A stretch of 46,374 bases of DNA from Candidatus Delongbacteria bacterium (GTDB lineage: Bacteria; UBA4055): the NCBI GenBank assembly GCA_007124045.1, contig SLFX01000088.1, positions 1 through 46,374 on the forward strand. The letters run 5' to 3'. Shown piece by piece: positions 17,005 through 25,363 of the stretch. The notes below the pieces were generated by a model, which did not search any database, was not told the origin of the DNA, and was given only the letters and a program-made list of their open reading frames with translations. The translations under genes and the position numbers were made by a program. The stretch's first letter is position 1, and every line of letters begins with the position of its first letter.

Positions 17005-17034
17005 TTTGACTTTGGCCGTCAAAAAAGCTAAATT
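17005..17034 (+). promoter_or_regulatory. Sigma70 promoter of the ATP-cone nuclease-WYL operon, overlapped by palindrome TTTGAC-N7-GTCAAA
   Basis: TTGACT at 17006-17011, 17 nt, TAAATT at 17029-17034. Inverted repeat at 17005-17010 / 17018-17023. Confidence 0.6.
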
Positions 17035-17066: not shown

Positions 17067-17933
17067 ATGGAAGAGGTTAACGGGGCTGTGGCGGAAAAAC
17101 AGCCGCTTGTCAGAAAAGCTACGGGCGAAAAAGAGCCTTTTAACGCGGCGAAACTCGAAAAATCGCTTTTCAATGCGGGCGCGAACGACAGGACGGTAAA
17201 AGAGATCACGGAAGAGATCAGCGAGTGGATCTTCGACGGCGTGACTACGAAAAAGATATATGCCAGAGCGTTCGCGCTTCTGAGGAGCAAAAAATCATCC
17301 GCCGCGCCGAGATACAGGCTAAAGCAGGCTATACTGGAAATGGGCCCTTCAGGCTATCCTTTCGAGCATTTAGTCGGCGAGATATTCAAAAAGCGCGGCT
17401 ATAAGGTCGAAGTCGGAGCCAATGCAGATGGGGACTGCGTCACGCACGAGATGGATGTGATAGCGACCAAAGAAAACCGGCAGCATCTGATCGAATGTAA
17501 ATTCGGGCAGGACCAGGGCAAATATGTAAGCGTTCAGGTGCCTCTTTATGTCAGATCAAGAGTTGACGATATAGTCAGTAAAAGAAAGAACATGCCGGAA
17601 TACGAAGGAACAGAATTTACAGGATGGGTGGTTTCCAGCACACGCTTCTCCCACGATGCCGTCACCTACGGAACATGCGCAGGGCTCAAAATGCTTGGCT
17701 GGGACTATCCCGCGGGCGAAGGCCTCAAGGACATCATCGAAAAGGAAAATATCATTCCCGTCACCCTGCTCTCAAAGCTCAATAAGGAAGAGAAAAGGAT
17801 CATTATGGAAAAAGGTATCGTAACCTGCCGGGCGCTTCTTAACGAAACGGATATCCTCGACACTTTTGAAATAAGCCAAAGAAAGAAAGAGCACATAATC
17901 AAAGAAGCCAGAAAACTCACCGGAGGTTTGTAA
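17067..17933 (+). CDS. ATP-cone domain fused to Mrr-like PD-(D/E)xK restriction endonuclease
   Basis: N-terminal VRKATGEKEPFNAAKLEKSL (ATP cone). GYPFEHLVGEIF and HEMDVIA...LIECKF nuclease motif. Confidence 0.85.
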   Translation: MEEVNGAVAEKQPLVRKATGEKEPFNAAKLEKSLFNAGANDRTVKEITEEISEWIFDGVTTKKIYARAFALLRSKKSSAAPRYRLKQAILEMGPSGYPFEHLVGEIFKKRGYKVEVGANADGDCVTHEMDVIATKENRQHLIECKFGQDQGKYVSVQVPLYVRSRVDDIVSKRKNMPEYEGTEFTGWVVSSTRFSHDAVTYGTCAGLKMLGWDYPAGEGLKDIIEKENIIPVTLLSKLNKEEKRIIMEKGIVTCRALLNETDILDTFEISQRKKEHIIKEARKLTGGL

Positions 17934-18973
17934 TGCCGACTGAAAAATACACCATAGAAAGAGTTCTGTCCGCGCTTGAGGAACTAACATCAAGAGGCTT
18001 TATCAGCAAGGATGACTTTATAAAACAGTGCGGTATAAGCGAAAGGACATTCTCGAGATTTATAGGCGATCTGAAGATATATCTTTCCGTCAAATACGAC
18101 AGGGAAATGGACAGATATGTCATAGACAGGACGAAAAAGGAAGCAAGAACGGAGATGCTCGAATACTACAAAAAGCTTCTTGCAAAAGACGATTTCGTTT
18201 TCTTTTACGCGTTCGTCAGGAGCATGATCAGCAGTCAGTATTTCTTTCCCGCTTTCGCCACAAAGCACATAGGGTCATCTCAGCCCAGAGATTTCGGAAG
18301 CGTACTTCAGATACTCGAAGAACTAACCGACCGCAGGCACAAAAAACTCTATAAAAATATCGAATACTACATAACCGGGCACTATCATCTCGGCAGCAGG
18401 CCGCATTATAAGGAATTGTGCGAAAGAATAATCAACAGCATGCAGACGGAAAACCTGATGGAATTTACATATTTCAGGAACAGGGTGAAGGTACAGCCGC
18501 TTAAGATAGTTTATTATAACGGAAAATGGTATATGATCGGGCTATATCTTGATTCCGACAAAAAGAGGGGCGACGACTACAATACCGTCAGAATTTATAA
18601 GGCAGCGCATATAAAAAGATCCGTGCTGCTCAGAAAAGAATACTATACCGACGACATACCCGAATACAGCTTTAACGAAAGTTTCGGGCTCTATATGGAC
18701 GAGGATGTAAAACGGGCGGTCATAAACATATACGGAACCGCAGCCGATGACGCAACAGAACTCGTCTGGCACAAAAATCAGTTCACCACCGTCGAAAGAG
18801 ATGTTGACGGGAACAAATATGTCCAGATCAGGATAGATTACCCCGAAAAAGGCGGCGTCGAACTCATATCAAGAGCACTCTCATTCGGAACTTGCGCAGA
18901 AATAGTCTCGCCTCCCGATCTCAGAAAGAAATGGCAGAACAAGATCAAAGAGATGTGCGGGAAGTTTTTGTAA
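17933..18973 (+). CDS. HTH-WYL-WCX transcriptional regulator (PafB/DriD-like architecture)
   Basis: N-terminal wHTH GISERTFSRFIGDL, WYL core VQPLKIVYYNGKWYMIG...RIYK, and WCX tail WHKNQ...ALSFGTCAEIVSPPDLR. TAATG overlap with the upstream gene. Confidence 0.9.
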   Translation: MPTEKYTIERVLSALEELTSRGFISKDDFIKQCGISERTFSRFIGDLKIYLSVKYDREMDRYVIDRTKKEARTEMLEYYKKLLAKDDFVFFYAFVRSMISSQYFFPAFATKHIGSSQPRDFGSVLQILEELTDRRHKKLYKNIEYYITGHYHLGSRPHYKELCERIINSMQTENLMEFTYFRNRVKVQPLKIVYYNGKWYMIGLYLDSDKKRGDDYNTVRIYKAAHIKRSVLLRKEYYTDDIPEYSFNESFGLYMDEDVKRAVINIYGTAADDATELVWHKNQFTTVERDVDGNKYVQIRIDYPEKGGVELISRALSFGTCAEIVSPPDLRKKWQNKIKEMCGKFL

Positions 18974-18990
18974 AGATAACAGATTAAACT

Positions 18991-19039
18991 AAATATTTTT
19001 CCTCTCCGCCATTATGTGGCGATACCGCTATATTATATT
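18991..19039 (+). promoter_or_regulatory. Island promoter element copy 1: AT tract + CGCCATTATGTGGCG + TATATT
   Basis: Palindrome at 19007-19021 and -10-like TATATT at 19034-19039, 13 nt after TGGC. Precedes GTG 19080. Confidence 0.75.
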
Positions 19040-19079
19040 TCCTCTGTTCAGGTCATTCTAACCAAAAAAGGAGGAAGAA

Positions 19080-19514
19080 GTGGAGAAACAGATCGGCTTT
19101 CGCATGTCAGTAATAAATAAAGACTTTTCGGACAGTACTTCGCTGTTCGTTTATTGCCTTGATCCGGGGCTGAATGAAGGCCGGGTGCCGGATAAGACAT
19201 TAGAGCTTTTGAAAAAGAAAGGCTTTGCGAGGCTCTATCAGATATTTTTGTTTTCGCAGAATAATGAAATGTCGGAACTTTCGGATGAGAGGCTGAAAAT
19301 ATGGCTGGGCGGGATCAGGAAAATATTCATAAACATCGGAGATCCGGGTACTGAAAGGCGGCAGGAGGTGAGAGAAAGGATCGAATATGAGAAAAACAGG
19401 ATCAGAAAGATCGCGCCCGATGTAAAGTTTTACCGTTTTGGAGAGCTGACCGGATCGGGATTCTCAAAAAAGCTCATTGAAATAGACGAAAATGATAAGA
19501 TCTATGAAATATAA
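19080..19514 (+). CDS. Hypothetical protein, possibly divergent DUF1643 family
   Basis: AGGAGG RBS and GTG start. LFVYCLDPG / LYQIFLFS / INIGDPG / FGELTGSG follow the order of DUF1643 motifs (LNPS, NLFA, AWG, LTKxG) but are degenerate. Confidence 0.6.
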   Translation: MEKQIGFRMSVINKDFSDSTSLFVYCLDPGLNEGRVPDKTLELLKKKGFARLYQIFLFSQNNEMSELSDERLKIWLGGIRKIFINIGDPGTERRQEVRERIEYEKNRIRKIAPDVKFYRFGELTGSGFSKKLIEIDENDKIYEI

Positions 19515-19536
19515 AATAAAGAAAGGAGAAAAAACT

Positions 19537-20265
19537 ATGAAACTTGATGAAATTAAAAAACTCAGAGGATCGGATTTCGATGTCCTCGTAAAATTTCTGA
19601 GCATGAGCGTAACAACCGGAGAAGGCGTGCTTGCAGAGTTCGCGAAACTTAAAAACGCGATAAGGCTCGGAAGCGGACTGAGCCAGTTCGTCTATGTGCC
19701 CGGCACAAGAGATGACAGGGTAGTGCTCGTTGCGCACGCCGACACAGTATGGGACTCATATATGCACTATAGAGATCATGAAACAGGAATGGGTGCGGAC
19801 GACCGGGCGGGCTGTGCGATAGTGTGGCTGCTCAAAGACACCGGCCACTCTCTGCTGATCCTGAACGGTGAGGAAAGCGGTATGCGCGGCGCAAAGTACC
19901 TGAAAAATGAACACGAACACCTATTCGATAAGATAAACCGCCACAGATTTATGATAGAGTACGACAGGAGAGGAAGCAGGGACTTCAAATGCTACGGTGT
20001 CGGTACAGATGAATTCAGGAAGTATGTTGCCGAAAATATGCCAGGCTACACAGAACCCGACAGATACTCAGCCACCGACATCTGCGAACTCTGCGAAAGG
20101 ATATGCGGAGTGAACCTGAGCGTCGGGTACACTAACGAACATACATGCAATGAAGAACTTGACATAGAAGACTGGGCAAATACGCTCAATATGACAAGAG
20201 TATGGCTGAAAAATAAAATGCCCGAATTTTTACTCCGCCGTTATGTGGCGCAGTCAATGTGTTAA
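19537..20265 (+). CDS. M28-like Zn-dependent peptidase/amidohydrolase
   Basis: VAHADTV, GADDRAG, GEE, EYDRRG, SATD and NLSVGYTNEH metal-ligand pattern. Start reassigned to ATG 19537 after AAGGAG. Confidence 0.8.
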   Translation: MKLDEIKKLRGSDFDVLVKFLSMSVTTGEGVLAEFAKLKNAIRLGSGLSQFVYVPGTRDDRVVLVAHADTVWDSYMHYRDHETGMGADDRAGCAIVWLLKDTGHSLLILNGEESGMRGAKYLKNEHEHLFDKINRHRFMIEYDRRGSRDFKCYGVGTDEFRKYVAENMPGYTEPDRYSATDICELCERICGVNLSVGYTNEHTCNEELDIEDWANTLNMTRVWLKNKMPEFLLRRYVAQSMC

Positions 20266-20268
20266 ATT
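20224..20268 (+). promoter_or_regulatory. Island promoter element copy 2: CGCCGTTATGTGGCG + TG-n-TAAATT
   Basis: Palindrome at 20236-20250 and TAAATT at 20263-20268, again 13 nt after TGGC. Overlaps the last codons of the peptidase and precedes ATG 20324. Confidence 0.75.
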
Positions 20269-20323
20269 ACCGGTGTGAAAAATAAAAGAGCCCGAAACAA
20301 TAACTACAAAAAGGAGAAAAAGA

Positions 20324-21085
20324 ATGAAAGAGAATTTTATAATACCGCAAAACATACTCGAACATATAGAAGGCACGAGCCTGTACTACCCCTGTAGCTT
20401 GAGAGATACCCTCAGTGCAGTAAAACTTTTCGCCCCGTACATAAACGATTTCCTCTTCGTAGATAAGTGTTATTTTTCAGGATATTCGCTTTTGAAGATA
20501 CCCACGCCGAAAGAATTGCCGGGCTACAGGCTGATATCAAGAAGAAGAAAAGGCCCTGTCAGAGCCGAAATGACAGAAAAATACGATGAAGTAAAAAAAG
20601 AATACTATTTGGACCTCGAACCCTGCATCGTAACCGAAACATACATCCACGAACAGACAGGCAAAACAATAAAATTCAGGCTGAAAAGAGGATTTGGAGA
20701 GTACACATTAAGAAACAGCGAAAACAAATATGGAGTGTTCTATTACAGAGGCGATACCGTAAATGAAGGCGGAAGCGGGATAACATGGCTGAATAAAAAG
20801 AGGCTGAGCAATATATGCAGTAAACTCATAGACGGCGGACTGATCGTAACTGACGGCTCGAACAGGGGAAGAAGGAAGGATAAGCATAATCAGTTCTGGA
20901 AATACCACTTCCCGAGAAAGAACGACATCTTACCCAATCCGGAGGAGATGATATCATCAATGGAGCCTTTTAAAGACAAAGCCGGAAGAACATTCACCTG
21001 CGTAGGATATGCGGGCGAGAGATATGGGCCTACATTCATCTGGCAGGTCTTTCAGGAAAGAAAGGAAGACGAGGTAAAAAAATAA
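20324..21085 (+). CDS. Hypothetical protein (possible SAM-dependent methyltransferase-like fold)
   Basis: AAGGAG RBS. LYYPCSLRD, FLFVD, VFYYRGD..EGGSG and LIDGGLIVTDG are reminiscent of Rossmann MTase strands. The fold call is weak. Confidence 0.6.
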   Translation: MKENFIIPQNILEHIEGTSLYYPCSLRDTLSAVKLFAPYINDFLFVDKCYFSGYSLLKIPTPKELPGYRLISRRRKGPVRAEMTEKYDEVKKEYYLDLEPCIVTETYIHEQTGKTIKFRLKRGFGEYTLRNSENKYGVFYYRGDTVNEGGSGITWLNKKRLSNICSKLIDGGLIVTDGSNRGRRKDKHNQFWKYHFPRKNDILPNPEEMISSMEPFKDKAGRTFTCVGYAGERYGPTFIWQVFQERKEDEVKK

Positions 21086-21097
21086 AGAAAAAGCAGC

Positions 21098-21126
21098 TTG
21101 ATTAATGTCATAACGGGGGTTAAATT
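21098..21126 (+). promoter_or_regulatory. Putative sigma70 promoter
   Basis: TTGATT at 21098-21103, 17 nt, TAAATT at 21121-21126, upstream of ATG 21157. Confidence 0.45.
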
Positions 21127-21156
21127 CAGGGATAGAATTAGTTTTTTATAAGCAAA

Positions 21157-21534
21157 ATGATAAAGCAGGAGAATAAAACGGGAATATCCTTTGAGGCTAA
21201 ATCATTCTTTACTATAACTTTCTATCGTGTTGACGCAAATGTTTACACAAATGTTGACGCAAAATCTGAAAACAGGCACAAAACAGGAGCAGATGTTGAC
21301 GCAAATGTTGACGCAAAATCTGAAATCCGACGCAAATCCGACGCAAATCCGATGCAAAGGAAACAGTGGATTTTAGAATATTTAAAAGAAAACAGCAAAA
21401 TCACACGGAAAATTCTTTGCGATAAATTCAGTTTAAGCAAGGAATCAGCTAGCAGAGATTTAAGAAAATTGATCGCAGACGATAAGATCGTAAAAAAAGG
21501 CGGCGGAAATAATGTCTGGTACGAATTTAAATAG
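21157..21534 (+). pseudogene. Internally deleted AlbA_2/HATPase_c_4/HTH ('RecG-like') regulator, retaining only repeat linker + C-terminal wHTH
   Basis: FFTITFYR, then a low-complexity VDAN linker, then RKQWILEYLKENSKITRK...SASRDLRKL...KKGGG..WY. This is the typical C-terminus of these normally much longer proteins. Confidence 0.6.
21229..21358 (+). repeat. Imperfect 12-bp tandem repeats (GTTGACGCAAAT / CCGACGCAAAT variants) in a coding linker
   Basis: gttgacgcaaat occurs repeatedly, atgttgacgcaaaatctgaaa twice, and aaatccgacgc twice plus a variant. Confidence 0.85.
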
Positions 21535-21728
21535 CCTATGAGAAAACATTACACTCTAAACGAGCATAAGTTTCTTTACAACATTGAGAACATCCCGGGT
21601 AAGTTGGGATGGGACGAAGACGGTAATGTCGGTATTCCCCGCGCAGCTTTTTAAACAAATAAAAAAATTCGTACTGCAAAATAACAGAAAAAGAAGAAGA
21701 AAAAGAATATTTAAGACCGGTTCGCGAA

Positions 21729-21933
21729 ATGATCATAAAATAACTTTGATTTTGTATCAAAAAAGGACAGAGAGTATTGGAAAAGTCTTACTCCTGAGCA
21801 GAGGCTTGATATTGTTGAACAGTTAAGAATTGAAGCGGGTAAATTTTTATATGAATATCCAGTAAGAATGAAGAAAGTCATCTCTGTGAGGAATATTCAC
21901 GATAAAGCCGACGCTGAGTCATTAAGAAAATAA
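21729..21933 (+). pseudogene. Frameshifted relic of a small-protein/nucleotidyltransferase pair
   Basis: Startless frame 21739-21933 reads ...DREYWKSLTPEQRLDIVEQLR...EYPVRMKKVISVRNIHDKADAESLRK, the same type as the 24299 protein. ATG 21729 is out of frame. Confidence 0.55.
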
Positions 21934-21948
21934 TTCCTATTAAAATAT

Positions 21949-22000
21949 AAAATATTTTTTCTCACAACGCCGTTATGTGGCATAGTAGTATTGTTATATT
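21949..22000 (+). promoter_or_regulatory. Island promoter element copy 3: CGCCGTTATGTGGCA + TG-n-TATATT
   Basis: Core at 21968-21981 and TATATT at 21995-22000 (13-nt spacer). Precedes ATG 22032. Confidence 0.75.
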
Positions 22001-22031
22001 ACCAGCGTAAATCTAAAAGCGTGAGGTTATA

Positions 22032-22592
22032 ATGTTTAAATCTGAGCTGAAAACACTGATGAACGAAAAGATCGCATCTTTCGGATATTCTTATGAAGAT
22101 ATCGCGTCAACTGCCGGTTATTCCGGATCGTCACTGAATGAAGCCGCTCAAAGGATCGAAAGAACGCTCGGTCACACTCTTTTAACTATGGACAGTGCGG
22201 GGTATGACTACAAATACACCACCGAAGAACTCATAAGAACGATATGCAGCATTCTCAAGATCGAAAAAGAAGCCGTTGATGACGGGATAAGCAAATTAAA
22301 GGCAGAGGCGGAGAGGCTGAGAAAGAGATTTCATGGTTATGTAAGAATAATCAGCACTAATGAAGTCAGGCCGTCAGGGTGGGCTTCAGCTATGGGTCAT
22401 TTTGCTAAAACAACTTTAAAGCTGCCGGTCGAACTGACAGACAATGAGCACAGGGTCAGAATGCATAAGGTCAGAGAGATCTGTATGGATCATTATAAGA
22501 AATCGGGAGGATCGCTTGGAGGAAAATACGGTAAGATAAAGTATTACAGATATTATTATGCCGAAAATGATTTCGAAGATATTAAGCCGTAA
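22032..22592 (+). CDS. Hypothetical protein with possible N-terminal HTH-like region
   Basis: GAGG RBS and a 186-aa ORF. GYSYEDIASTAGY resembles an HTH start. No function recognised. Confidence 0.7.
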   Translation: MFKSELKTLMNEKIASFGYSYEDIASTAGYSGSSLNEAAQRIERTLGHTLLTMDSAGYDYKYTTEELIRTICSILKIEKEAVDDGISKLKAEAERLRKRFHGYVRIISTNEVRPSGWASAMGHFAKTTLKLPVELTDNEHRVRMHKVREICMDHYKKSGGSLGGKYGKIKYYRYYYAENDFEDIKP

Positions 22593-22626
22593 AAAAAACT
22601 GACAAATTCGTCTCTTGACAGGCAGA

Positions 22627-22659
22627 ATATTTAGCAGCTGTTTTGCAGAAATTATCCGA
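22627..22659 (+). repeat. 33-bp direct repeat copy A (relic of doc 3' end)
   Basis: ATATTTAGCAGCTGTTTTGCAGAAATTATCCGA, with 1 mismatch to 25324-25356. Confidence 0.9.
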
Positions 22660-22663
22660 GTAG

Positions 22664-22716
22664 TGTAAGAAATATATTACAAAAACATTGACAAAAATAT
22701 ATTACATTCGTATATT
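22664..22716 (+). promoter_or_regulatory. Sigma70 promoter with two 18-bp operator-like sites
   Basis: TTGACA at 22688-22693, 17 nt, TATATT at 22711-22716. TGTAAGAAATATATTACA at 22664-22681 and TGACAAAAATATATTACA at 22689-22706. Confidence 0.75.
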
Positions 22717-22746
22717 GCAAGCAGAATAATTTCGGAGGCAAAGATC

Positions 22747-23598
22747 ATGGCCATGAACGAATATATTAAGAAAATGAGAGAGAAAAGAGGCTTAACTCAG
22801 GATCGGACGGCTGGATATCTAGGTTGTTCGCGTCAGACATATACTCAGATCGAGAATGGCAAAAGAGATATAACTCTGACAGAGATAAAAAAGCTCTCGG
22901 AATTGTTCGAAATACCATTTGCCAGATTTGTTAATGAAAGCGAAGCTGATATATATAGCATCGAATATGAGCCTCAGGTAAAGCCACAGCCCTCAGGTGA
23001 GATCAAAGTTCGTGTTCCTCAGAACAGAGTTGACAAATTCAGAGAAGTTTTACTTTATATCCTTTCCAAGGCGGGTGCAAAACCAAATATCGGTGAGACC
23101 GTATTATATAAGTTACTGTATTTTATTGATTTCGATTACTATGAGAAGTACGGTGAGAAGCTGATCGGTGCTGATTATATAAAAAATCATTTCGGCCCCA
23201 CACCTGTGATGTTTAAAAAAGTAACCGAAGTGATGATAGCAGATAATGAGCTTGAAGTGATAGAAAAGTCGTATTACGATTTCAATCAGAAAAAATATCT
23301 TCCCAGAAGGGAGGCTGATCTGAACAGGATCACCGCGAGGGAGATTAAACATATTGATGAGGTACTTGAAAGACTGAGCGATAAAAATGCCAAAGAATTG
23401 AGCGATCTGTCGCATAAAGATGTTCCATGGATCATAGCGAAAGAAGGAGAAAAGATAGATTACAAAACTGTATTATACAGAAAACCTGAAGAGCGTATGG
23501 CTATTGCCGCAAAAGCGCTCTATGCGGATTATTGTACAGACGAAGAGCTCACGGCTTTTTCCGGTCTTGATATGGAGGATTTTTATGAGGCAAGGTGA
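22747..23598 (+). CDS. XRE-HTH + Panacea/SocA (DUF4065) antitoxin with extra acidic C-terminal tail
   Basis: RGLTQ...SRQTYTQIENGKR HTH, then LYKLLYFIDF, HFGPTP and LSDLSHKDVPW Panacea motifs. Confidence 0.88.
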   Translation: MAMNEYIKKMREKRGLTQDRTAGYLGCSRQTYTQIENGKRDITLTEIKKLSELFEIPFARFVNESEADIYSIEYEPQVKPQPSGEIKVRVPQNRVDKFREVLLYILSKAGAKPNIGETVLYKLLYFIDFDYYEKYGEKLIGADYIKNHFGPTPVMFKKVTEVMIADNELEVIEKSYYDFNQKKYLPRREADLNRITAREIKHIDEVLERLSDKNAKELSDLSHKDVPWIIAKEGEKIDYKTVLYRKPEERMAIAAKALYADYCTDEELTAFSGLDMEDFYEAR

Positions 23599-23929
23599 GA
23601 TATGGCTTATAAATCTTGATCCTTCTATAGGTTCTGAGATCAAAAAGACAAGACCGGCAGTAGTTGTAAATAATGATTCCACAGGAAAATTGCCGCTTAA
23701 GATAATCGTTCCTCTGACTGAATGGAAAGATCATTTTAGTATAGCCCCCTGGATGGTTAAGGTCGAAGCCGACTCGGAGACAAAACTCTCTAAGAATTCA
23801 TCTGCAGATTGTTTTCAGATACGGTGCGTTTCAGATAAGAGGTTCGTTAAGAAGCTGGGTGAAGTCCCTGCACATGTTAGAAGCGATATTCAGTCTGCAT
23901 TATCCGAAATTTTATCAATAAAACATTAA
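23585..23929 (+). CDS. PemK/MazF family endoribonuclease toxin
   Basis: MRQGEIWLINLDPSIGSEIKKTRPAVVV, IVPLT and QIRCVS. Start reassigned to ATG 23585 after GGAGGA, overlapping the antitoxin stop. Confidence 0.95.
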   Translation: MRQGEIWLINLDPSIGSEIKKTRPAVVVNNDSTGKLPLKIIVPLTEWKDHFSIAPWMVKVEADSETKLSKNSSADCFQIRCVSDKRFVKKLGEVPAHVRSDIQSALSEILSIKH

Positions 23930-23976
23930 ATATTTTTTGACTCCGCCATTATGTGGCATTGTAGTATTGTTATATT
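23928..23976 (+). promoter_or_regulatory. Island promoter element copy 4: CGCCATTATGTGGCA + TG-n-TATATT
   Basis: Core at 23944-23957 and TATATT at 23971-23976 (13-nt spacer). 46/51 nt identical to copy 3 over 23944-23994 vs 21968-22018. Confidence 0.75.
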
Positions 23977-23992
23977 ACCCGTGTAAACCTAA

Positions 23993-24235
23993 AAAAAAGA
24001 GGAGGGTACGGCGGCAGTTTCGCTTGTTCTCTTCAATACGGATTACGAAATGCCTGTCAGCAACCTGGAAATATCGCAGGTAGAACCGCTGACTAAAAAG
24101 ACCTTTGTGCCTTCGGGCTGTACTGCTCTTTTTGATGCCGTCGGGAAAACCATCAACGAAGTAGCTGTTACCAATGCTAAGTCGAAAAAGAAGAAGAAAA
24201 AATGTTTATTAACTCCGGGAAATGTAATATATTGA
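23993..24235 (+). pseudogene. Internal fragment of a VWA-domain protein
   Basis: Frame reads EEGTAAVSLVLFNTDYE...FVPSGCTALFDAVGKTI, the central VWA strand plus the GxTAL.DA motif. Lacks the N-terminal DxSxS and the TDG strand. Confidence 0.7.
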
Positions 24236-24298: not shown

Positions 24299-24496
24299 AT
24301 GCGTAAGATCGAAGAAAAATACCACAAATTAACCGACGATCATTCTGATTTCGATATTGAATTCTGGCAGTCTCAGGGAGCGGAGGCAATATTCAAGGCA
24401 GCGGAAGATATGATAAAAGATTATTACATTATCAGAGGAAAAGATGTTAACAAGCTCAGACTTCAAAGATCTGTTGAGGCTTTTAGAAAAGCATAA
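24299..24496 (+). CDS. Small protein partnered with a nucleotidyltransferase (putative TA component)
   Basis: AAGGAG RBS and DIEFWQSQ...RLQRSV pattern. Overlaps the start of the downstream NTase. Confidence 0.7.
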   Translation: MRKIEEKYHKLTDDHSDFDIEFWQSQGAEAIFKAAEDMIKDYYIIRGKDVNKLRLQRSVEAFRKA

Positions 24497-24974
24497 TGCA
24501 AGGTATATGGTTATCGGCGGCTATGCCGTAATGAAGTACAGCGAGCCCCGTTATACAAAAGACCTCGATCTTCTTATCTCAACCGATAATGAAAATGCCG
24601 AGGCTGTCTTCAACGCGCTGAAAGAATTCGGTGCGCCTTTAGAAAATCTAACGGCTGATGATTTTACTAATAAAGACTATTTTTACCAGATGGGTAGGGC
24701 TCCTCTCAGGATAGATGTTCTTATGTCCGCGGCCGGGGTTGAATTTGAACAGGCATGGAAAAACCGCGCGGAAGTTAATATCGAAGATTGTAAAGTGTAT
24801 TTTATTTCTTTGACCGATCTTATAGCTTCAAAGGAAGCCAGCGGCAGACCGCAGGATATTATTGATGCCAAGAAGCTCCGGAAGGCTTTAGAGAAAAGGG
24901 AAGAAAGGCTCAAAAAGTCGCTGGAATTCGTTAACAGGCATCATGCAAAAACACTCAAGAAGCTTTCAGAATGA
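24444..24974 (+). CDS. Nucleotidyltransferase (DUF6036 / AbiEii-like superfamily) with C-terminal extension
   Basis: VIGGYAV, PRYTKDLDL, RIDVL and KEASGRPQDIID. Confidence 0.88.
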   Translation: MLTSSDFKDLLRLLEKHNARYMVIGGYAVMKYSEPRYTKDLDLLISTDNENAEAVFNALKEFGAPLENLTADDFTNKDYFYQMGRAPLRIDVLMSAAGVEFEQAWKNRAEVNIEDCKVYFISLTDLIASKEASGRPQDIIDAKKLRKALEKREERLKKSLEFVNRHHAKTLKKLSE

Positions 24975-25363
24975 CAAATGAGATCATTTTCCTTACGCTT
25001 GCTGAAGCAGTAGAGATCCATGCTGACCAGATCATCAGGTACGGAGGCGAGTCAGGCATTATTGATATCAGGCTTCTCAGTTCAGCTTTATATATGCCGG
25101 AAGCAACTTTCGATGGTGATTACCTTCATAAAGATATCTATGAAATGGCAGCCGCATATATCTATCATATCTGTCAGAATCATCCATTTGTTGACGGAAA
25201 TAAAAGAACAGCACTCGCGGCAGGTCTTGTATTCTTATACTTCAACGGTAAACCGCTGACAGATCCTGACGAACTTCTCTATGATGCAGTAATGAAAACT
25301 GCATCCGGCAACGCTGACAAATCATATTTAGCAGCTGTTTTGCGGAAATTATCCGAAGAATAA
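24971..25363 (+). CDS. doc: Doc (death-on-curing) Fic-family toxin
   Basis: IHADQIIRYGG and the Doc motif NHPFVDGNKRTA. ATGA overlap with the upstream gene. Confidence 0.93.
   Translation: MTNEIIFLTLAEAVEIHADQIIRYGGESGIIDIRLLSSALYMPEATFDGDYLHKDIYEMAAAYIYHICQNHPFVDGNKRTALAAGLVFLYFNGKPLTDPDELLYDAVMKTASGNADKSYLAAVLRKLSEE
25324..25356 (+). repeat. 33-bp direct repeat copy B (3' end of doc)
   Basis: ATATTTAGCAGCTGTTTTGCGGAAATTATCCGA. Confidence 0.9.

Follow-up and report, generated by a model that had tools for sequence, protein, structure and literature searches.

The window analysed here, a stretch of 46,374 nucleotides taken at its full length, derives from an uncultured soda-lake bacterium of the Candidatus Delongbacteria, and all window features described below lie on its forward strand. 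A 346-aa HTH-WYL-WCX regulator and putative palindrome binder is encoded at positions 17933..18973 (Pfam WYL E 1e-5, WCX E 1e-3), where its gene ends a two-gene operon served by a sigma-70-like promoter at 17006..17034 (TTGACT-17-TAAATT, located by consensus scan). A 6-N7-6 palindrome read from the sequence, TTTGAC-N7-GTCAAA (17005-17023), overlaps the -35 box of this promoter. The first gene of the operon (17067..17933) encodes ATP-cone, Mrr_cat (PD-(D/E)XK) and AF1548-like_C domains (Pfam) with weak CARF_PDDEXK/Csx1 matches in PADLOC, and its stop overlaps the start of the WYL gene (TAATG). The gene preceding the WYL gene in the record of the relative G001 (L068) has no homology to it. Two further WYL paralogues of the same architecture are encoded in the genome, on contigs C145 and C116.

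Downstream of the WYL gene, the motif CGCCRTTATGTGGC occurs in four exact copies, at 19007, 20236, 21968 and 23944, as the original prediction had stated, and no additional copy is present in the window with up to two mismatches allowed, including upstream of the WYL operon. Four or more copies arose in none of 100 shuffles of the window, with a mean of 0.23 matches per shuffle. Each copy is preceded by an A/T tract and followed after exactly 13 nt by TAWATT, which reads TATATT at 19034, 21995 and 23971 and TAAATT at 20263, and the extended -10 element (TGn) is present at three of the four, the exception being 19034. Promoter module 1 (19007..19039; site model R1, E 4e-9) is composed of the operator CGCCATTATGTGGCG (19007-19021), a 12-nt spacer and the -10 box (19034-19039), and module 2 (20236..20268; E 1e-10) of the operator CGCCGTTATGTGGCG (20236-20250) and TGn with TAAATT (20263-20268). 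Module 3 (21968..22000; E 4e-11) carries the operator CGCCGTTATGTGGCA and module 4 (23944..23976; E 2e-11) the operator CGCCATTATGTGGCA, each with TGn and TATATT (21995-22000 and 23971-23976, respectively). With the TATATT hexamer taken as -12 to -7, the palindrome spans approximately -39 to -25 with its centre near -32, and at 17-nt spacing the -35 slot of the modules reads RTTATN and falls inside the palindrome. In line with the claimed lack of a -35 element, the four window promoters all escape a simple sigma-70 scan, for want of a usable -35 hexamer in any of them.

An RBS-bearing gene lies downstream of every module copy. Cargo unit 1 (19080..20265) comprises a 144-aa ORF (19080-19514), a homologue of which also follows a site in G012, and an M28-like peptidase gene (19537-20265). 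The ORF had been called DUF1643-like but finds no match in Pfam, PADLOC or NCBIfam; the peptidase assignment is borne out by Pfam (E 8e-7) and by 59% identity to an M28-like gene of G005, which is the second gene of a site-driven VWA-M28 operon. Cargo unit 2 (20324..21085) encodes a 253-aa protein without a family in these three collections, for which Rossmann-type methyltransferases are found among the structural neighbours in the ESM Atlas, a lead only. The 186-aa protein of cargo unit 3 (22032..22592) likewise belongs to no family; sites in G004 and G005 precede homologues of it, and it shares 34% identity, along its entire length, with the protein encoded third in the G005 VWA-M28 operon. 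Behind module 4 lies the remnant of a VWA gene (24050..24235), where, consistent with the predicted VWA fragment, a 61-aa ORF aligns with a 200-aa VWA protein of G005 over residues 57-119 of the latter; in G005 and G014, the same module is followed by full-length VWA genes. The island also contains a toxin-antitoxin module (22688..23929), comprising an HTH_3+SocA_Panacea gene (22747-23598) and a PemK/MazF-like gene (23585-23929), both assigned by Pfam, with its own canonical promoter, TTGACA-17-TATATT (22688-22716), which the same sigma-70 scan does detect. Behind the site located 3' of the WYL gene in G004, the first gene is a homologue of this HTH_3+Panacea gene.

The earlier statement that no copy exists outside the island holds within the window but not genome-wide. 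A fifth copy with one mismatch and an identical spacer (C131:3403) heads an AAA-ATPase/AddAB-like helicase-nuclease operon, and a weaker sixth copy (C58:11938) lies ahead of a DUF1016 nuclease gene. Searched against the whole genome, the module profile returns five matches at E<=3e-13 and one at 0.015, the next being no better than 0.16. With at least two further loci in this genome, and more target types in relatives, the regulon is not self-contained, contrary to the original proposal.

Co-occurrence was assessed in 16 Candidatus Delongbacteria genomes (R1, E<=1e-4), which are kin, such that the counts overstate independence. WYL orthologues of at least 45% identity are present in nine of these (G000, G001, G002, G004, G005, G008, G011, G012 and G014), the window protein sharing 45-74% identity with those of the eight other genomes, and the 33 R1 sites are confined to exactly the same nine, bearing out the proposed association of motif and orthologue. 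In G000, G001, G002, G004 and G012, the 3' end of the WYL gene has a site 10-45 nt away, in G011 a site lies just upstream of the gene, and arrays of sites downstream of the WYL gene are also found in G004 and G005. Among the 33 core matches of the family loci, the spacing to the -10 box is 13 nt in 29 and 12 nt in one, while the spacer sequence itself is variable. In a set of 61 genomes, TAYATT is located exactly 13 nt downstream in 12 of 14 core matches from other genomes of the same family, compared with none of seven from other families. These sequence comparisons support the palindrome as a conserved cis-element and no chance repeat, one that takes the place of the -35 box at a fixed distance to the -10 box and is tied to this WYL orthologue through adjacency and co-occurrence across the phylum.

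The conserved core of the regulon consists of a WHD-AAA ATPase, a fused AddB/AddA-like helicase-nuclease, the VWA/M28-peptidase/186-aa module and, in some genomes, the regulator itself, whereas the variable shell contains defence-type genes and genes of no assigned role, many of them arrayed directly downstream of the regulator gene. Targets in relatives include the AddAB-like helicase-nuclease, a Type ISP restriction enzyme and a Cas6 gene, among others, and the defence- or repair-type members also include the DUF1016 nuclease, Schlafen/AlbA_2 and MoxR-VWA. This content fits a damage/defence response. The recA gene, which closely follows another gene in the five relatives examined, has no motif in any of them and is not a target, which leaves the AddAB-like operon and analogy as the grounds for a link to DNA damage.

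The promoter layout is similar to that of DriD from Caulobacter crescentus, an HTH-WYL-WCX activator of an SOS-independent DNA-damage response with which the window protein shares the domain order wHTH, helical bundle, WYL and WCX. The DriD site is ATACGAC(X)7GTCGTAT (PMC13004042), and the core CGAC-N7-GTCG cited in the original prediction is correct (PMC13004042; PMC12392091). Both operators are palindromes with CG-rich arms of 4-5 bp and an A/T-rich centre of 5-7 bp, and both lie over the -35 position of promoters that lack a -35 box, at a fixed distance to the -10 box (PMC13004042). Indeed, in the 'optimised -35' didA oligo, TTGACA replaces bases within the spacer of the DriD palindrome (PMC13004042). 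The regulator gene is found behind a site in G011, G004 and G007, and DriD also controls its own expression (PMC10853764). The arms are distinct, however, with CGCC/GGCG here and CGAC/GTCG in DriD; no equivalents of the DriD targets didA, bapE, recJ and dnaG were identified among the targets here, where, unlike for DriD, the regulator gene has many sites lined up right next to it.

The motif of DdaA (Moraxellaceae/Acinetobacter), a WYL activator of DNA-damage and anti-phage genes with repair and defence targets, is CGWCA-N5-TGWCG, which has the same 5-N5-5 geometry and four of five arm bases in common with CGCCR-N5-YGGCG (PMC12392091). The present operator differs at one position per half-site and is, by sequence, a one-base variant of the published DdaA and DriD sites; its earlier description as undescribed was thus overstated. 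The aciT site of the DdaA system, CGACAATATGTGTCG, also has an A/T-rich TATG-type centre, as here (PMC13010146). The DdaA regulon contains repair, restriction-modification and CRISPR-Cas genes (PMC12392091), a mixture also seen in the relatives here (Type ISP enzyme, Cas6), and DdaA stands in for the SOS system (PMC12392091); here, no LexA_DNA_bind match above the Pfam cut-off was found in the six genomes searched. By contrast, the reported position of the DdaA motif is some 50 bp upstream of the TSSs and not over the -35 slot (PMC12392091), so that the register here matches DriD, and DdaA controls recA, ssb and uvrA, whereas recA here lacks a site; the comparison with DdaA is one of motif and description. 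PafBC of actinobacteria, third in the fold ranking, likewise has WYL domains and activates, at promoters that lack a -35 box, a damage response independent of LexA, but consists of two WYL proteins, paired as a heterodimer or fused, rather than the product of a single gene, and is classed as binding downstream of -35, whereas the symmetric operator here is centred on the -35 slot (PMC13004042). The local array itself resembles SiwR of Mycobacterium smegmatis, a WYL activator of adjacent genes under genotoxic stress (PMC10693628).

DriD is also the closest solved structure to the WYL protein, although the relationship is remote, with identity of only about 20% (18-23%, E 6e-4 to 2e-6) that is located in the C-terminal region, and the WYL protein is about 20 residues longer. 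In a PDB search with the family profile, DriD entries (E 2e-6) were the only matches at E<0.01, and one unrelated match followed at E 0.61. Using an AF2 model of mediocre quality (pLDDT 66), Foldseek places DriD first (E 8e-12), followed by PafBC, CapW and BrxR, with low TM-scores of 0.24-0.26; CapW and BrxR are reached at E 2e-6 to 9e-5, and neither is matched by the sequence profile. Within a predicted helix of the WYL protein, R38-T39-x-x-R42 is conserved and has the spacing of Arg37, Thr38 and Arg41 of DriD, where the arginine pair together with Thr38 establishes base contacts (PMC10853764). Because the N-terminal 108 residues have no solved relative by sequence, the equivalence of Arg38 and Arg42 is based on spacing, not on alignment.

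We consider it fairly probable that the WYL protein is a DriD/DdaA-like regulator that binds the palindrome and activates the -35-less promoters upon ligand binding, with single-stranded DNA as the ligand by analogy. It is rather unlikely that the protein acts instead as a CapW/BrxR-type repressor, seated on the -35 slot of otherwise active promoters and leaving the DNA on binding ssDNA. The operator does overlap the core promoter, and the -35 slot is also a repressor's place; moreover, TGn and an upstream A/T (UP-like) tract, present at five of the six sites in this genome, might allow activator-independent transcription, the cargo is largely defence-like, and CapW provides the precedent of an ssDNA-sensing wHTH-WYL-WCX repressor associated with immune systems (PMC11662680). 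CapW and BrxR share the broad architecture and lie beside defence genes, but are described as repressors of CBASS and BREX operons. Across the family, however, TGn is observed at only 9 of 29 sites, and the prevalent 13-nt spacing would be expected if RNA polymerase were contacted but is not needed for repression. CapW and BrxR also rank below DriD and PafBC by fold, and the regulator's own operon in the window has a separate canonical promoter with no motif upstream. Activation is the most likely direction of control.

We regard it as improbable that a different factor, such as the C145 or C116 paralogue or some other regulator, uses the palindrome as its site, with the proximity of the WYL gene reflecting only a shared island. 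The genome encodes three WYL proteins of the same architecture, the proposed binding comes from sequence, and G009 has weaker sites (E 5e-4), while the closest WYL protein found there is just 34% identical. On the other hand, the G009 assembly is 91% complete and in 230 contigs, and paralogue-type proteins (30-37% identity) occur in all 16 genomes, whereas strong sites are present only with the orthologue, which a site adjoins in six genomes from four genera. The AAA-ATPase orthologue of G007, which bears a variant site, is directly followed by a WYL gene of 37% identity, and therefore the pairing tracks this WYL lineage. Spread of promoter or junction copies by duplication or integron-like cassette recombination, with no regulon signal, is scarcely credible: module 4 and the C131 copy do have the same spacer, from which that of module 3 departs at one base, in G004 a homologous 71-aa gene comes first behind each of three near-identical modules, and the cargo is of mixed type, with a gene remnant among it, but no integrase or transposase was found in the window, every copy faces an RBS-bearing gene, the module is kept at the orthologous AAA-ATPase gene in seven genomes, and the spacers differ between genomes while palindrome, -10 box and spacing are kept, a signature of selection on function.

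For the DriD/DdaA-like activator, we suggest that the 346-aa protein (17933-18973), presumably as a dimer, would bind the palindrome (C)G(C/A)CR-TTATN-TGGCG. Since the -10 box of the modules is good but a -35 box is missing, the bound protein is proposed to recruit or stabilize the housekeeping RNA polymerase, as DriD does. A ligand on the WYL domain would then switch the promoters on; by analogy, this may be single-stranded DNA arising from DNA damage or phage attack, ssDNA binding and activation being features of DriD that are putative for the window protein. The nucleic-acid-sensing activator originally envisaged is thus retained as a proposal, given the conserved operator, its linkage to the orthologue, the DriD-type promoter layout and DriD as the closest solved relative, but as part of a regulon that extends beyond the island and uses a variant of a known site. 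The set of promoters beside the WYL gene, in all of which the same palindrome stands in for the -35 box, suggests a switch set off by damage or phage, of the kind known from DriD and DdaA.

The 14-mer CGCCRTTATGTGGC occurs four times in the 46-kb window (19007, 20236, 21968 and 23944, all on the + strand), and no further copy is found there even when up to two mismatches are allowed. Chance would provide a mean of 0.23 matches, and none of 100 dinucleotide-preserving shuffles (0/100) contains four copies. The likeness among the copies spans ~65 nt, and each shows the same order of elements, running from an A/T tract through the palindrome to a -10 hexamer, TATATT, exactly 13 nt after the GGC, and then to an RBS and a start codon located 31–73 nt past the hexamer. 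Only the copy at 20236 has TAAATT (20263) as its -10 hexamer, and the sequence ACCnGTGT often lies behind the hexamer of the module copies. The motif search and the shuffles thus bear out the original prediction of four palindromes, each 13 nt before TAWATT; the predicted extended -10 is likewise seen, with TGn preceding the hexamer in three of the four copies. As also predicted, a TTGACA-like -35 is missing from the modules: a simple sigma-70 scan calls none of them (0/4), because they have no usable -35 hexamer, yet finds a perfect TTGACA-17-TATATT at 22688–22716, ahead of a toxin-antitoxin module in the island. The organism therefore uses canonical promoters.

The distribution of the module follows that of one WYL lineage. 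The exact 13-mer core is shared by nine of the family's 15 other genomes and turns up as single matches in seven of the 45 genomes from other families; TAYATT lies exactly 13 nt downstream of the core, with a start codon shortly after, at 12 of the 14 family sites and at none of the seven sites in other families (0/7). R1, a sequence-only model of the promoter module built from 18 aligned sites, matches 33 sites at E ≤ 1e-4 in the phylum set of 16 genomes, all from one family and therefore related, so that these counts are not independent. The sites lie in the genome of the window (G000) and in G001, G002, G004, G005, G008, G011, G012 and G014, which are exactly the genomes that encode a protein sharing ≥45% identity with the window WYL protein. 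Elsewhere in the set, the best match reaches 30–37% identity, the level of G000's own two paralogues; G009 has one R1 site at 5e-4, and the remaining six genomes have none below 0.008. The proposed co-occurrence of motif and WYL orthologue therefore holds among these related genomes. Judged by sequence comparison, the cis-element is real, under selection and tied to the lineage of the window's WYL protein.

The arrangement around the regulator is also shared, with a site no more than a few tens of bases from the orthologue's 3' end in G000, G001, G002, G004 and G012, and with more sites arrayed downstream of it in G004 and G005. A site just upstream of the regulator gene is seen in G011 only. 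The G011 orthologue (contig C35, L125 3752–4705) is only 317 aa long, was matched in two pieces in the genome search (residues 3–166 and 199–346) and lacks part of the WYL domain (Pfam reports WCX only), yet is the sole orthologue with a site directly upstream. Across the family loci examined, the distance to the -10 box is 13 nt in 29 of the 33 core matches and 12 nt in one, spacer sequences vary between genomes, and TGn is present in only 9 of the 29 sites with 13-nt spacing. Within single genomes, near-identical modules that include the spacer are observed in G000 (window 21968–22000 and 23944–23976, and C131:3403–3435) and in G004 (L100 18752, L101 11136 and 14314), and the promoter of the AAA-ATPase orthologue in the same-genus G001 has a different spacer. 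This pattern suggests, at the sequence level, that the promoter module was duplicated or gene-converted within genomes.

The window corresponds to contig C156 of the 2.0-Mb, 95%-complete G000 assembly, which contains two more sites genome-wide and no further position with a profile E better than 0.16. The site at C131:3403 has one palindrome mismatch and shares its spacer with the 23944 copy, the 21968 spacer being one base off, whereas that at C58:11938 is weaker, with TGCCACTATTTGGCG followed after 12 nt by TATATT (profile E 0.015). Downstream of the C131 site are a 548-aa AAA ATPase, for which the ESM Atlas neighbours are WHD-AAA relatives (leads only), and a 2037-aa protein (L006 3466–11308) in which an AddB-like PD-(D/E)XK half is joined to an AddA/RecB-like helicase-nuclease half; the pair lies downstream of a MutS2 gene, and the fusion is also present in G002 and G004. 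The C58 site precedes a DUF1016 nuclease gene. Because both sites are outside the island, the regulon is, contrary to the proposal, not self-contained. G000 also encodes two more HTH-WYL-WCX paralogues (C145:18266–19330 and C116:2884–3927), 32–36% identical to the window WYL protein, and both have the conserved FFY-F-(R/K)SM helical motif that is seen in it.

Within the island, the WYL gene (17933–18973, +; Pfam WYL and WCX domains) is preceded by a gene for an ATP-cone, Mrr-type PD-(D/E)XK and AF1548-like_C nuclease (17067–17933), the stop codon of which overlaps the WYL start (TAATG). This protein gives weak PADLOC matches to CARF-PDDEXK/Csx1 nucleases and may be a nucleotide-sensing nuclease; its gene has no conserved counterpart ahead of the WYL gene in L068, a record from the same genus. 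A separate palindrome, TTTGAC-N7-GTCAAA (17005–17023), overlaps the -35 hexamer of the ATP-cone/WYL operon promoter; its 15-bp geometry is that of the WYL operator, its arms are different, and it might be bound by another regulator or a paralogue. Module 1 (19007) is followed by a 144-aa ORF and an M28-like peptidase, module 2 (20236) by a 253-aa ORF, module 3 (21968) by a 186-aa ORF and then an HTH_3+SocA_Panacea/PemK pair with its own promoter, and module 4 (23944) by a 61-aa VWA remnant. PADLOC and NCBIfam assign no family to the 144-, 253- or 186-aa proteins, and the earlier label of the 144-aa ORF as DUF1643-like is not supported by Pfam, PADLOC or NCBIfam matches. The M28 peptidase and the VWA fragment were correctly recognized, the former being 59% identical to an M28-like gene of G005 and the latter aligning to residues 57–119 of a relative's 200-aa VWA protein. 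ESM Atlas neighbours of the 253-aa protein are Rossmann or methyltransferase-like, again as leads only.

Two short tandem-repeat families, five copies of TGTTGACGCAAA and three of AAATCCGACGCAAA, occupy 21228–21358, with a fourth AAATCCGACGCAAA copy (79% match) at 21398. Both lie in the 5' part of an ORF (21157–21534) whose last 60 residues form a DeoR-type winged HTH; the real gene may comprise only this ~60-aa HTH, starting near 21355 and preceded by an iteron-like array. Where the island ends (24299–25363), further toxin-antitoxin-like genes encode a 65-aa ORF, a DUF6036/AbiEii-like nucleotidyltransferase and a Fic/Doc protein, and no WYL-type promoter is found at them. Contigs from four DNA runs of soda lakes and alkali sediments show the island nearly unchanged, apart from some loose ends close to module borders. 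Its flanks are ordinary chromosomal genes. It differs from integron-type cassette arrays in that no integrase, transposase or recombinase family is detected in the window and the repeats have promoter anatomy.

Some of the genes behind the sites recur across the family. The AAA ATPase carries a module in seven genomes. The AddAB-like gene lies behind the ATPase in G000 but is preceded by a separate site in G002 and also in G004, there with 12-nt spacing and with the WYL gene as the following gene. A single G005 site stands ahead of a three-gene operon encoding a VWA protein, an M28-like protein and a 200-aa protein; the window homologues (the VWA remnant, the M28-like peptidase and, at 34% identity, the third gene) stand behind three separate promoter copies, and the window island thus looks like a rearranged version of this operon. 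Further genes behind sites in relatives encode HTH_3+Panacea; DUF6847; Bro-N; Cas6; a group made up of DUF7663, DUF4062, a Type ISP restriction-modification enzyme and a Schlafen/AlbA_2 protein; MoxR together with a VWA-like protein; and RhuM together with Schlafen. Unlike a LexA/SOS box, the motif is absent upstream of recA in all five relatives examined (5/5), where recA is present and closely follows another gene, and no LexA_DNA_bind domain scores above the Pfam cut-off in the six genomes searched (0/6). The 95%-complete G000 assembly gives no recA match, which is probably an assembly gap.

The WYL protein has the order wHTH, helical bundle, WYL and WCX, and its 346 residues compare with ~320–350 for the class; the secondary structure of an AF2 model begins with N-terminal helices and a wing, continues through a helical region and a WYL region rich in beta strands, and ends in a C-terminal domain. 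When a profile of 21 family members is searched against PDB chains, only DriD (8TP8 and 7TZV; PMC10853764) is matched at E < 0.01, weakly (E 2e-6) and over the C-terminal 130 residues, and the N-terminal 108 residues return only unrelated proteins at E > 0.2. With the AF2 model (moderate, pLDDT 66), Foldseek places DriD first (E 8e-12, full-length alignments), followed by PafBC, CapW and BrxR, with low TM-scores as expected for a multi-domain protein. The conserved R38-T39-x-x-R42 resides in a predicted helix and has the spacing of Arg37 and Arg41 with Thr38, which make the base contacts of DriD (PMC10853764); R38 and R42 would be equivalent to these arginines by spacing, the N-terminal region not aligning to DriD by sequence. 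W199, Y200 and R220 show little or no variation in the family alignment and, by analogy, may let the WYL domain bind ssDNA. Close relatives form a small subfamily: of 3,890 clusters at E ≤ 1e-3, 25 reach E ≤ 1e-30.

The predicted operator has the consensus (C)G(C/A)CR-TTATN-TGGCG (18 aligned sites and 33 model matches) and conforms to the pattern CGxC(N)-N5-(N)GxCG. DriD binds ATACGAC(X)7GTCGTAT; its promoters have no -35 box, and its sites overlap the -35 position at a single set distance from the -10 box (PMC13004042). Similarly, the predicted operator lies on the -35 slot at a fixed distance from the -10 box (13 nt, 29/33), also without a -35 box. A 17-nt spacing from TATATT places the -35 slot at RTTATN, inside the palindrome, as in the didA oligonucleotide with an 'optimised -35', where TTGACA replaces bases inside the DriD palindrome spacer (PMC13004042), and the operator-to-promoter register agrees with that of DriD within one or two bases. 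DdaA of Moraxellaceae binds CGWCA-N5-TGWCG and controls repair and anti-phage genes (PMC12392091), with the aciT site being CGACAATATGTGTCG (PMC13010146); the operator here, CGCCR-N5-YGGCG, differs from it at one position per arm. DdaA sites are, however, reported ~50 bp upstream of start sites, whereas the module here sits over the -35 slot, so that its register is DriD's rather than DdaA's.

Variant operators are found in G007, where the best WYL match is 37% identical and an AAA-ATPase orthologue (49% identity) lies directly upstream of that WYL gene. Ahead of the orthologue is CGCCATTATATGTCC, followed after 12 nt by TATCTT, and a second site nearby is CGACATTATATGTCG; the two variants, CGACATTATATGTCG and CGCCATTATATGTCC, lie on contig C75 (L124 3985 and 5111), and their arms are of the DriD/DdaA type. 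Hybrid CGAC...GGCG sites are present in G002, G005, G009 and G012; A is thus tolerated as the third base of the distal arm, and the -10-proximal arm hardly varies. Across the family, the relaxed CGAC-type pattern CGACRTTATNTGTCG (1 mismatch) is no commoner than its reversed control, and from this search we keep the exact G007 match and the hybrid sites as observations only.

We consider that the WYL protein is probably a DriD-like activator, because the -35 box is missing, the register is invariant, the extended -10 is scarce across the family and the protein is related to DriD. A repressor that uses this site is a serious rival, if a rather improbable one, one reason being that most of G000's own sites have TGn and A/T tracts. 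The WYL repressors CapW and BrxR differ in having an autoregulatory operator in the regulator's own promoter, at the head of a defence operon; here the palindromes lie downstream of the WYL gene, and the operon's own promoter, TTGACT-17-TAAATT, is without the motif. PafBC differs in that its two WYL-type subunits, PafB and PafC, are adjacent or fused, whereas here a single 346-aa gene has the ATP-cone nuclease and the 144-aa ORF as neighbours. A sigma-54 reading of the TGGC element was dropped, as most sites have no TTGC at the right distance. By analogy with the family, ssDNA would be the signal, and the trigger would thus be DNA damage or phage attack.

A more far-reaching joint reading, which as a whole we regard as doubtful, is that Delongbacteria, in which no LexA was found in the six genomes searched, would have a DriD/DdaA-type WYL sensor as master switch of their damage and phage response. 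The 45-nt promoter module would then be a portable part, copied or converted within genomes (G000, G004) and set before new genes, and the stretch downstream of the regulator gene a nursery that recruits defence genes and uncharacterised effectors into the regulon. The WHD-AAA ATPase, the fused AddB/AddA-like enzyme and the VWA/M28/186-aa module might together form undescribed response machinery, and the arm change from CGAC to CGCC, with a distal arm that still tolerates A, might record a shift of regulator specificity within one lineage.

We found no study of WYL regulons or motifs in Delongbacteria, and the predicted WYL regulon is new for an unstudied phylum, with an operator that is a one-base variant of known ones and a promoter array that is unusually tidy. 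It provides an uncultured phylum with a testable regulon of one regulator, one 15-bp operator and ~33 predicted promoters spread over nine genomes. For the complexes of DriD with RNA polymerase that were recently solved, such strict promoter geometry is a natural point of comparison, and the WHD-AAA ATPase, the fused AddB/AddA-like enzyme, the VWA/M28/186-aa module and DUF6847 are candidate damage- or phage-response effectors worth study. LexA-independent control of the DriD/DdaA type would thereby be extended to a distant lineage, with the operator arms changed by one base.
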